64,000 nucleotides of DNA from a phage: the NCBI GenBank assembly GCA_024673055.1, contig GCA_024673055.1_4537.1; one strand, given 5' to 3'. This document shows, one piece after another, positions 50,177 to 53,632 of the stretch. Below the pieces are notes generated by a model that had not been told where the DNA came from, made no database searches, and worked only from the letters and a program-made list of their open reading frames with translations. The translations under genes were made by a program, and so were the position numbers. The first letter of the stretch is position 1. Each line of letters starts with the position of its first letter.

Positions 50177-50202
50177 AGCAAAAAGCCTCCAATAAGGAGG
50201 CT
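50177..50202 (-). terminator. Rho-independent terminator (minus strand) ending the tRNA operon
   Basis: On the minus strand AGCCUCC-UUAUU-GGAGGCU followed by UUUUUGCU. Confidence 0.55.
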
Positions 50203-50893: not shown

Positions 50894-50923
50894 ACTATAC
50901 TACATTTTACTATTGGTTGTCAA
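50894..50923 (-). promoter_or_regulatory. Sigma70-like promoter (minus strand) for downstream tRNAs
   Basis: On the minus strand AACTATTGACAA, 18 bp, TATAGT, just upstream of tRNA-Gly. Confidence 0.5.
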
Positions 50924-51640: not shown

Positions 51641-51728
51641 TGGTGGTGAGTGATGGAGTCGAACCACCCGAATCGCAATGATAACAGATTTACAGTCTGC
51701 CCCGCTACCCCTACGGAATTAACTCACC
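51641..51728 (-). tRNA. tRNA-Tyr (anticodon GTA), type II, CCA encoded
   Basis: Acceptor GGTGAGT/ACTCACC, anticodon arm GCAGA-CTGTAAA-TCTGT, long variable arm, T-arm GGTGG-TTCGACT-CCATC. Confidence 0.65.
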
Positions 51729-51948: not shown

Positions 51949-52039
51949 TGGCGGAAGGAGGGAGAGTCGAACTCCCAAGGCTCTTTCAAGCTCGGCGGTT
52001 TTCAAGACCGTTTTCGTCGCCACGTCGATTTGCCCTTCC
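51949..52039 (-). tRNA. tRNA-Ser (anticodon TGA), type II, CCA encoded
   Basis: Acceptor GGAAGGG/TCCTTCC, anticodon loop CTTGAAA, long variable arm, T-arm GGGAG-TTCGACT-CTCCC. Confidence 0.55.
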
Positions 52040-52047
52040 ATACTTAT

Positions 52048-52077
52048 AATCTAACATAAAATAATGTTAGTTGTCAA
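52048..52077 (-). promoter_or_regulatory. Sigma70-like promoter (minus strand) inside the tRNA cluster
   Basis: On the minus strand AACTATTGACAA, 18 bp, TAGATT, upstream of tRNA-Ser(TGA). Confidence 0.45.
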
Positions 52078-52273
52078 TAGTTTTTTAAAACATTTTACCA
52101 TGAATGGTGACTCCACCAACCCCCGTTCTCAACGAACGGTGCTCTTCGAGCATTTATGTCTTCTAATATAACCGTGGCCTTTGTTTATAATGTCTGACAT
52201 ACTTGCCTCATTCTCTGCCACCATGATCAGTAGTGGGTTCAAATCACTTGAGCTAATTCATGTTAAAATGTTC

Positions 52274-52350: not shown

Positions 52351-52425
52351 TGGTGGCCCTGGCTGGTTTCGATCCAGCTACCTATCGGTTATGAGCCGAC
52401 AGCTCTCCCATTGAGCTACAGGGCC
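52351..52425 (-). tRNA. tRNA with anticodon CAT (Met, or Ile if lysidine-modified), CCA encoded
   Basis: Acceptor GGCCCTG/CAGGGCC, D-arm GCTC-AATGGGA-GAGC, anticodon arm GTCGG-CTCATAA-CCGAT, T-arm GCTGG-ATCGAAA-CCAGC. Confidence 0.65.
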
Positions 52426-52630
52426 ATAAATGTGGTAACAGAGACGCTGACGATTGTAGAGAACCGCTACATTCTCTAAGACCAAGCCCAACTTTCAGCG
52501 TAAAAGTTCTTGAGCCGAGACTATTCCTTTTCCTCTTTGGTAGCTAACCTCTGAAGAAGTAGTCTCTAACACTACCGCAGTGCAAGCCCCTCTTAACAAA
52601 AGTCAACGACCCTGTTACCACACTTGATGA

Positions 52631-52664
52631 ACGTATCCTAACATATGAAGGATACGTTTGTCAA
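52631..52664 (-). promoter_or_regulatory. Sigma70-like promoter (minus strand) for the tRNA cluster, overlapped by a 9-bp perfect inverted repeat
   Basis: On the minus strand AACTATTGACAA, 18 bp, TAGGAT; palindrome ACGTATCCT-N9-AGGATACGT (52631-52657) covers the -10 and spacer. Confidence 0.5.
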
Positions 52665-52671
52665 TAGTTAT

Positions 52672-52986
52672 TTAAGCATATTCTGCTACTTCTTCACTAT
52701 CTTTCTTTTCCAGAAGAGCAACAACCAAAGCTTCTGCGTTAAAAGTATTAATTTCAAGATCCATCTCTCGCATCAGAGCCAAGAAATCAATAACTTTAAC
52801 ATCTTTAGTGATTACAATAGAAGTTGTACCATTGTTTTCAGATGTGTATTTTTCTGGATGGAAAAGAAAAACTGCATTGCCGTTACCATCTTCAAACACG
52901 TGTTTTTCTAATAGAGACATTGTTCCTCCTAATCTGTTAGTTGTTCGTCCTCTACCAAGTTTGACACGAGAACGTCTGTTATACAT
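52672..52986 (-). CDS. Hypothetical protein
   Basis: 104 aa ORF upstream of the tRNA promoter in the minus-strand block. Confidence 0.45.
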   Translation of the reverse strand: MYNRRSRVKLGRGRTTNRLGGTMSLLEKHVFEDGNGNAVFLFHPEKYTSENNGTTSIVITKDVKVIDFLALMREMDLEINTFNAEALVVALLEKKDSEEVAEYA

Positions 52987-53180
52987 TGATGCTGATAAAC
53001 CCTTTCGGGACTATCATCAAAAGCCAAACCTGTGCAAATAGAACAGAGGTCTGATTCCTTGATGACTCCATTTTTATCACGTCTGGAGTGGTTTGTCAAA
53101 TGCCTATTACAAGCACGGCACCTAAAATAAAAGCTATTTTGCATATATCCTTCGAACCCCAAATGGGGAGTGATCGGCAT
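52929..53180 (-). CDS. Hypothetical Cys-rich (zinc-ribbon-like) protein
   Basis: 83 aa with CRAC...CSIC pattern. Confidence 0.4.
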   Translation of the reverse strand: MPITPHLGFEGYMQNSFYFRCRACNRHLTNHSRRDKNGVIKESDLCSICTGLAFDDSPERVYQHQCITDVLVSNLVEDEQLTD

Positions 53181-53217: not shown

Positions 53218-53403
53218 TCAACTAGGAATAATTTTATCCTTTTTGGTTTCATAACCAGTCCAATCTAAATCCTCCCAGCCTTCATCATCGTCTAACACAT
53301 TGTCATCATCGTAAGATGCAATGTTATAAATAGAACGTGGATTACAAGACATACAATCTTTAATAGGCACATGATGCCATTTGCACGGATTCTCGCTAAT
53401 CAT
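53218..53403 (-). CDS. Hypothetical small protein
   Basis: 61 aa ORF; first gene of the minus-strand block, preceded by a GGAGGTG RBS. Confidence 0.4.
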   Translation of the reverse strand: MISENPCKWHHVPIKDCMSCNPRSIYNIASYDDDNVLDDDEGWEDLDWTGYETKKDKIIPS

Positions 53404-53430: not shown

Positions 53431-53632
53431 TCCGTACTGTACTTCATACTGATCTATAGATCAAGTATTATTTATAATAATTTATTATTTTATTTTTAAT
53501 TGATAGAAGTTGATCTGTACGTACCAGTTCTGATACACTGTACCTGTTTGTTAGATCTAATAATTATTTATTATTAATATTTAATAATTATTAATCTAGT
53601 ACAGAGTACAGTACTTGAGTACAGAGTACTAC
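53431..53632. repeat. AT-rich divergent control region with clustered GATC/GTAC palindromes and direct repeats (origin or operator candidate)
   Basis: 14-bp palindrome TGATCTATAGATCA, GTACGTAC, inverted pair GTACTGTAC / GTACAGTAC about 170 bp apart, direct repeat AGTACAGAGTAC x2, long A/T runs; no ORF. Confidence 0.5.

Follow-up and report, generated by a model that had tools for sequence, protein, structure and literature searches.

A conserved inverted repeat across an extended -10 promoter at the head of a Phapecoctavirus tRNA cluster, and its possible role as an RNA stem-loop at an mRNA/stable-RNA boundary

What is the role of a perfect inverted repeat that lies across the core of a promoter at the head of a phage tRNA cluster? 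The question is raised by a locus in a stretch of phage DNA of 64,000 nucleotides (the window, in what follows), where positions 52351-52930 are 100% identical to phage phAPEC8 (JX561091); the window is that of a Phapecoctavirus, an E. coli phage of the phAPEC8 type, and about 65 near-identical genomes exist. A sequence-only reading had pointed to a perfect 9-bp inverted repeat at 52631-52657, placed it over the spacer and the -10 region of what was called the main tRNA promoter, and proposed that it is the operator of a dimeric repressor by which expression of the tRNA operon is gated. The repeat is real and is nested in a dyad that is one pair longer in each arm: on the plus strand, 52630-52658 reads AACGTATCCT-AACATATGA-AGGATACGTT, that is, two perfect 10-bp arms around a 9-bp spacer (AACGTATCCT-N9-AGGATACGTT), and when two mismatches are tolerated the arms grow to 16 nt with 88% complementarity (52624-52639 and 52649-52664). 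Its placement across the promoter spacer and the -10 holds as well, since the dyad (10+10 bp) takes in five of the six -10 bases and spans about -30 to about -2 relative to the promoter.

The promoter, P1, is encoded on the minus strand. Its -35 hexamer TTGACA (52664-52659), identical to the consensus at six of six positions, is part of a -35 box ACTATTGACAA (52658-52668) that follows an A/T-rich stretch; 18 bp further on lies the -10 hexamer TAGGAT (52640-52635), with a TG at 52643-52642 ahead of it. Judging from the position of the -10, transcription is predicted to start at an A around 52628, 7 nt past the hexamer. P1 thereby contains the elements of a sigma-70 promoter of the extended -10 type, namely TTGACA, a 16-18-bp spacer, TAnnnT and TGn. 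The minus strand reads TAA(stop)-ATAACTA-TTGACA-AACGTATCCT-TCATATGT-TAGGAT-ACGTTCATCAAG. The 5' arm of the dyad in the transcribed sense (AACGTATCCT, 52649-52658) fills the P1 spacer beside the -35, the loop, or spacer of the dyad, TCATATGTT (52640-52648) contains the TG and the first T of the -10, and the 3' arm (AGGATACGTT, 52630-52639) consists of -10 positions 2-6 and five bases past the -10. The stop codon in this string ends an acidic 82-aa ORF of unassigned function (phrog_15056; 52672-52920, minus strand) and lies 7 nt ahead of the -35 hexamer and 13 nt ahead of the first paired base of the dyad. Five Phapecoctavirus haplotypes and the more distant phages related to Klebsiella phage KP2025 (see below) all keep TTGACA, TGn and TAnnnT, while nearly all of the sequence between these elements changes; a TGT or TGG precedes the -10 in every haplotype, while the neighbouring loop bases differ. 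Invariance of the -35, TG and -10 throughout the relatives indicates that P1, AACTATTGACA-N18-TGT-TAGGAT, is a genuine extended -10 promoter for the host sigma-70.

There is no promoter annotation at P1 in the phAPEC8 record JX561091 or in the other records inspected, and a survey of the literature on Phapecoctavirus, Justusliebigvirus and Stephanstirmvirinae found no promoter mapping, start-site or transcriptome data. The phAPEC8 record does list a set of 'host dependent' promoters (AAAAAGTATTGACA-N17-TAAGAT), defined with MEME, which P1 and its two sister promoters resemble. Like P1, these promoters have an A-rich upstream stretch, TATTGACA, a spacer of N17-18 and a TAAGAT-like -10; unlike P1, they have no dyad over the spacer and -10 (none was found in the five annotated host-type phAPEC8 promoters) and carry a repeated GC hairpin GGGCGGCAATGGTGCCGC at about +5. 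In GenBank the name 'PHIRE promoter' is given to a repeat (GTAGGGCGGCAATGGTGCCGC) with at least ten copies in phAPEC8 outside the window (L020 556-575, 937-956, 1787-1806 and 3202-3221; L021 32213-36062); this repeat is a GC hairpin. As it is located about 5 nt past the -10 of host-type early promoters, a 5'-UTR stem-loop is a likelier identity for it than a promoter.

The window contains the -35 box ACTATTGACAA three times in exact form, at 52664, 52077 and 50923, each time on the minus strand within the tRNA cluster, and allowing up to one mismatch there are 7 matches against 2.2 expected. The two other exact copies belong to the sister promoters P2 (TTGACA-N18-TGn-TAGATT, 52048-52077) and P3 (TTGACA-N18-TATAGT, 50894-50923, upstream of tRNA-Gly), which are likewise on the minus strand and drive the remaining tRNAs. 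The designation 'main tRNA promoter' is therefore right about the strand, P1 being a promoter on the strand of the tRNAs, and wrong in implying a sole one, P1 being the first of three with this box. P2 has only a 7-bp repeat (CTAACAT/ATGTTAG) and P3 a 6-bp repeat; neither is kept in the relatives, where a 5-bp AACAT/ATGTT match is all that persists at P2. Since P2 and P3 have no conserved long dyad, the cluster as a whole cannot be gated by the dyad at P1, and the proposal of a gated tRNA operon finds no support.

The tRNA cluster comprises ten tRNA genes detected by ARAGORN, all on the minus strand, and is ended by a canonical intrinsic terminator on the same strand (AGCCTCC-TTATT-GGAGGCT followed by TTTTGC, 50184-50202). 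The first gene, tRNA-Met (CAT), is found by both ARAGORN and Rfam at 52351-52425 (minus). Directly after P1, and stopping 2 nt short of tRNA-Met, is a sequence of about 200 nt (52428-52625, minus) that is predicted to form a closed, multi-branched fold with a minimum free energy (MFE) of -76.8 kcal/mol (z -4.8). Its closing stem, of about 22 bp, extends from 3 nt after the predicted transcription start to 2 nt before tRNA-Met, and RNAalifold applied to seven distinct haplotypes recovers 72 consensus pairs, 14 of them with compensatory double changes. A search of Rfam at E<=10 with the P1 region and the downstream RNAs returned tRNAs only and no family for the structured RNA, which is unannotated in all the records inspected. 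P1 appears, on these comparative grounds, to start a conserved structured RNA of about 200 nt fused to tRNA-Met, and because this folded RNA lies between P1 and tRNA-Met, P1 is better called the promoter of a unit made up of a structured RNA and tRNA.

Several other features of the cluster deserve mention in their own right. Between tRNA-Arg and P2 there is a second structured-RNA candidate (52082-52273, minus; MFE -53.9 kcal/mol, z -3.5) with a 17-bp closing stem, in which one C-G pair is replaced by U-A through a compensatory change in the clade of phage phiWec179; it has no Rfam match. Two tRNA-like sequences on the minus strand, 51644-51728 and 51953-52039, were missed by ARAGORN and matched by Rfam models (39 bits for tRNA; 37.4 bits for the tRNA-Sec model, which is under the gathering score), and other records label these places tRNA-Tyr and tRNA-Ser(TGA). 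In two metagenome relatives, ORFs are inserted in the cluster just past the structured RNA (L010 3526-4233 and L015 4806-5312) and show faint HTH matches and NUMOD4/HNH homing-endonuclease domains. On account of these insertions the cluster looks like a hotspot for mobile elements.

By itself, a dyad of this size carries little weight. Four perfect inverted repeats in the window have arms of 10 bp or more separated by no more than 12 bp, compared with 1.05 in dinucleotide shuffles, and at least one such 10-bp repeat is present in 68% of dinucleotide-shuffled windows; as shuffled sequence so often holds repeats of this kind, the dyad alone is not significant. The obvious check on an operator, a genome-wide search for its half-site, covered about 148 kb, i.e. 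the window and the rest of phAPEC8. Exact copies of the half-site ACGTATCCT number three, two of which are the dyad itself (1.1 expected), and with up to one mismatch there are 32 against 32.7 expected, or 4 against 3.3 in the window only. The counts are at expectation and reveal no regulon, and no second copy of the dyad was found in the same about 148 kb. What sets P1 apart is its folding: among the 31 sites of the form TTGACA-N17/18-TAnnnT in about 148 kb, P1 has the most stable hairpin in the region from the -35 to +8. A rule by which every promoter would contain a dyad was considered and dropped, P1 alone standing out among the 31. The runner-up, at L021 33812, is probably no true promoter; it falls within a small ORF with a hydrophobic product. 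That ORF (L021 33791-33898, 35 aa) is unannotated in phAPEC8, is conserved at the DNA level in phi92-like phages, and holds a 12-bp near-perfect inverted repeat (TGGAACGATTAA/TTAGTCGTTCCA) together with the promoter look-alike.

More can be learned from the fate of the dyad in related phages, which were drawn from GenBank, from one IMG/VR contig, from JGI metagenomes, and from Logan and ENA contigs to which protein clusters of the 82-aa ORF led. The Logan and ENA contigs yielded three new dyad variants; scans of IMG/VR and of the JGI metagenomes gave no additional one. In the phAPEC8 clade the sense strand is TTGACA-AACGTATCCT-TCATATGTT-AGGATACGTT-CATCAAG, with the loop variants TCGTATGTT and CTGTATGTT; the first three bases of the loop vary (TCA, TCG, CTG), TATGTT is kept, and the arms are identical by descent. 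The phiWec179 clade has TTGAC-AAGCGTGTCTTA-TTTTGT-TAAGATACGCTT-TATCAAG, in which the -10 is TAAGAT at 17 bp from the -35. Lineage L009 has the phiWec179 form with the loop TTTTGG, and L007 has that form with the left arm AAGCGTACCTTA, the loop TTCTGG and one uncompensated C.A mismatch on the sense strand. The downstream sequence ATCAAGTGTGG is invariant, as are the -35, TGn and TAnnnT. Between the two clades the arms have been altered in step, from AACGTATCCT/AGGATACGTT to AAGCGTGTCTTA/TAAGATACGCTT, by three kinds of change: a C-G to T-A double change, the right half of which is the change of the -10 from TAGGAT to TAAGAT; an added G-C pair, through an A to G change on the left and insertion of a C on the right; and one A-T pair turned into a G.T wobble. 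In all, the clades have about 17 ungapped differences here and pairing is retained.

Four of the sequences inspected bear host names that stand out. Campylobacter phage B15, Acinetobacter phage vB_AbaM_ABPW7 and Klebsiella phage ZCKP1 share at least 99% identity in this region with E. coli phapecoctaviruses, and Pseudomonas phage PsgM04F has the phiWec179-clade form of the locus; these host labels may deserve checking.

Beyond Phapecoctavirus, tblastn with the 82-aa ORF leads to two deeper lineages, the phi92-like phages (46% identity) and the KP2025-like phages (32%). In KP2025, FKP3, phi1_175008 and an IMG/VR contig the ORF is followed by TTGACA-N18-TGT-TAGAGT; the -10 in this lineage is TAGAGT or TAAAGT at 18 bp, and tRNA-Met begins 11 nt past it. 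In these phages the spacer and the bases past the -10 make up a dyad, GAAGTATTA-N13-TAATACTTC, which differs from that of phAPEC8 in arm sequence and occupies the same position. As RNA the KP2025 dyad forms 14 bp, two of them U.G pairs, with a free energy of -12.9 kcal/mol (z -4.4); as DNA it reaches only -4.6 kcal/mol. At the junction between ORF and tRNA in phi92-like phages, tRNA-Met comes directly after the ORF and inspection found neither promoter nor hairpin.

To what extent has this pairing been maintained? The MAFFT alignment is ungapped over the dyad and stems that shift in register cannot be counted pair by pair in it, so folding and simulations were used instead. Folded as RNA, the phAPEC8 segment has an MFE of -16.0 kcal/mol (z -5.5), and the Phapecoctavirus haplotypes range from -13.4 to -18.1 kcal/mol (z -4.6 to -6.8). 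In simulations that started from the phAPEC8 form and left the 25 positions without a promoter constraint free to change, a hairpin of -16 kcal/mol or better was retained in 0.03-0.2% of trials after 8-14 random substitutions; when the free positions were shuffled, the phiWec value was met in 0 of 5000 shuffles and the KP2025 value in 2 of 5000. Taken together, the compensatory changes, the rarity of retention in the simulations and the rank of P1 as the top fold among the promoter-like sites of the genome argue that the pairing of the dyad is under selection and lend support to a function for it. What is kept is the pairing, and the geometry drifts: the loop is 9, 6, 4 or 13 nt long in the different forms, the half-site centres are 19, 18 or 22 bp apart, the dyad is centred at about -16, -15.5 or -14, and the register of the arms slides relative to both the -35 and the -10 between lineages.

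We consider the best reading of these data to be that the dyad encodes a stem-loop in read-through RNA that marks the boundary between an mRNA and a stable RNA, and give it a probability of about 0.4. Under this reading the segment 52624-52664 (given as 47 bp) would serve twice, as the P1 promoter and as the code for the stem-loop, with the spacer bases beside the -35 kept complementary to the -10 and to the bases just past it. Transcripts that start at P1 begin downstream of the 3' arm, so that only RNA made by read-through from an upstream start can contain the stem-loop. The small-gene operon upstream, whose last stop codon is the one 13 nt ahead of the dyad, is presumed to supply such transcripts. 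Read-through from upstream is plausible as judged from the promoter-like sites at 53221 and 53099, and from KP2025, in which a strong TTGACA-N18-TAAGAT promoter lies immediately upstream of the ORF. The most likely role of the stem-loop would be to form the 3' boundary of the mRNA. It might act as a pause site or weak terminator, curbing read-through and the occlusion of P1, or as a block to exonucleases that shields the mRNA 3' end once RNase P or RNase E has freed the stable RNA. The position of the hairpin agrees with such a role: 4 nt separate it from the closing stem of the structured RNA here and 3 nt from tRNA-Met in KP2025, and with the stop codon 13 nt before it and the stable RNA a few nucleotides after, it falls exactly at the mRNA/stable-RNA boundary. 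The phi92-like junction, with no hairpin, indicates that a protective 3' hairpin is not obligatory. Further upstream, at 53548-53595, AT-rich overlapping palindromes (TAATAATTATTTATTATT and AATATTTAATAATTATTA) lie in the intergenic region from which the minus-strand small-gene operon and plus-strand genes diverge; phage tuntematon has an annotated repeat_region near the equivalent place.

If the hairpin acts in RNA, wobble pairs could reveal the strand, and their testimony is mixed. The phiWec clade, L009 and KP2025 have G.U pairs that speak for the sense strand, whereas L007 has its sense-strand C.A mismatch and the outer extension of the phAPEC8 dyad pairs better in the antisense (-20.1 kcal/mol against -16.0 kcal/mol for the sense). 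A canonical intrinsic terminator was considered and rejected: the consensus scan made no call, and in phAPEC8 the stem is AT-rich, with 4 G-C pairs out of 10, and the loop has 9 nt (6 nt in the phiWec hairpin). The tails after the stem, UCAUCAAG in phAPEC8, UAUCAAG in phiWec and UUUGGCCC in KP2025, contain 2-3 U and no U-run, and the clear terminators of the phage differ in having GC stems, tetraloops and U-runs. A terminator acting on the antisense, i.e. plus, strand was likewise rejected, the tRNA cluster to the left containing no plus-strand promoter-like site.

The original proposal, that a dimeric repressor of phage or host binds the arms, occludes the -10 and the spacer, and at some point in infection silences P1 and with it both the structured RNA and the first tRNAs, is in our view doubtful. 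It has points in its favour, for the dyad is perfect and its centre falls at about -16 to -14 on a strong promoter, and a repressor site would likewise take the form of a dyad at about -15; the symmetry is retained in three lineages, parallel changes in the two half-sites are to be expected from a co-evolving repressor, and a site unique in the genome would suit a single-target regulator. Much of the evidence above is hard to accommodate, however. No second site exists in about 148 kb, P2 and P3 lack the dyad, the spacing of the half-sites shifts by 1 and by 3-4 bp between lineages along with the register of the arms, and much of the KP2025 pairing rests on U.G pairs, which are available to RNA only. 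Nor is a binding protein evident nearby: a search of eight neighbouring proteins for Pfam matches and PHROG functions returned none, the adjacent proteins have no recognisable DNA-binding domain, and one of them, the 82-aa ORF, is strongly acidic. The Zn-ribbon neighbour was tried as the repressor and rejected: it retains 69-87% identity between lineages with different dyads, is conserved to a far greater degree than the dyad, and occurs in phi92, which has no dyad. A dedicated repressor that co-evolves with the dyad and is encoded elsewhere in the genome would be compatible with these observations. The Zn-ribbon protein (CxxC-N21-CxxC; 52929-53180, minus), found at that identity in the phiWec179 and KP2025 lineages, is unusually conserved for the region; its true start is probably the Met at residue 13, and its homologue in phi92 (L030 2072-2293) is unannotated.

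A hairpin tolerates shifts in arm sequence and register that a protein dimer of fixed geometry usually does not, and the drift in register and loop length, the uniqueness of the dyad, its absence from P2 and P3 and the lack of an adjacent binder candidate accordingly led us to prefer the RNA stem-loop over the operator, for which these same observations leave the sequence-only reading without support. The narrower form of the proposal, a single operator through which a co-evolving phage or host repressor switches off P1 only (structured RNA, tRNA-Met and tRNA-Arg), we rate as unlikely. If true, it would mean that a lytic myovirus times a novel stable RNA apart from its other tRNAs, and an operator of either form would place the phage among the few large lytic coliphages with classical repressor control.

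That the repeat is an inherited accident, with the promoter alone of importance, is improbable. The frequency of 10-bp repeats in shuffled windows and the identity by descent of the arms in the phAPEC8 clade speak for it; against it, the pairing has outlasted the differences between the clades through compensatory changes, unrelated arms recur at the equivalent position in KP2025, and the simulations and shuffles seldom or never reproduce the hairpin. Even less probable is an element that acts through DNA structure, whether as a cruciform or by altering the melting of a promoter with an 18-bp spacer, so that P1 would sense supercoiling. The dyad does enclose the extended -10 and the -10, promoters with 18-bp spacers are sensitive to supercoiling, and as single-stranded DNA the hairpin reaches -9.8 to -11.3 kcal/mol (z about -5.5 to -6.4). 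However, cruciforms form poorly from 10-bp arms with a 9-nt loop, the KP2025 DNA hairpin is weak, with a loop of 11-13 nt, and wobbles occur among the conserved pairs. The core site of a site-specific recombinase, used once per genome for dimer resolution or circularisation, is the least credible explanation, since its single copy, a geometry like that of lox, FRT and dif-type sites (10-12-bp inverted arms, 6-9-bp spacer) and the 'putative site-specific recombinase' and 'transposase-like protein' listed in the phAPEC8 record are set against a spacer that varies between 6, 9 and 13, a position locked to the promoter elements, the absence of an adjacent recombinase gene and nothing else in support.

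One stretch of DNA here satisfies two constraints, the promoter hexamers and the pairing of spacer with -10, in what is a small regulatory detail of one phage subfamily. The dyad and P1 together mark where an early mRNA operon gives way to a stable-RNA operon. In the process, an unannotated promoter has been located, and two unclassified structured RNAs are indicated within the tRNA cluster of phages in wide use as candidates for therapy.

How does this arrangement compare with known systems? Repressor operators placed over promoter cores are familiar from LacI and lacO, the LexA boxes, TetR and tetO, and lambda CI, and the sites for protein p4 of phi29 are inverted repeats 15 bp apart. The dyad shares with sites of these kinds an inverted repeat over the spacer and -10 of a sigma-70 promoter and a conserved symmetry; unlike them, it occurs once per genome and leaves the sister promoters unprotected, its arms, register and spacing drift, and no cognate protein is identifiable. 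Stem-loops at the 3' ends of genes include the 3' hairpins that RNase III cleavage leaves between T7 early genes and the stable intercistronic hairpins of T4. Like terminators and stabilising 3' stem-loops, the dyad follows closely on a stop codon, at 13 nt here and 12 nt in KP2025, where an mRNA meets the next unit, and its pairing is kept by compensatory substitutions. It differs in having no U-run and an AT-rich stem, and in lying within the next promoter instead of preceding it; its loop is large because it carries the TG and -10 bases. As to the RNA that follows, the tRNA cluster of T4 includes the stable RNAs C and D (species 1 and 2). The structured RNA resembles these in being a non-tRNA of 100-200 nt within a phage tRNA cluster, apparently released by tRNA processing, and is distinguished from them by having no sequence or Rfam relation to either and by termini that pair in a stem of about 22 bp.
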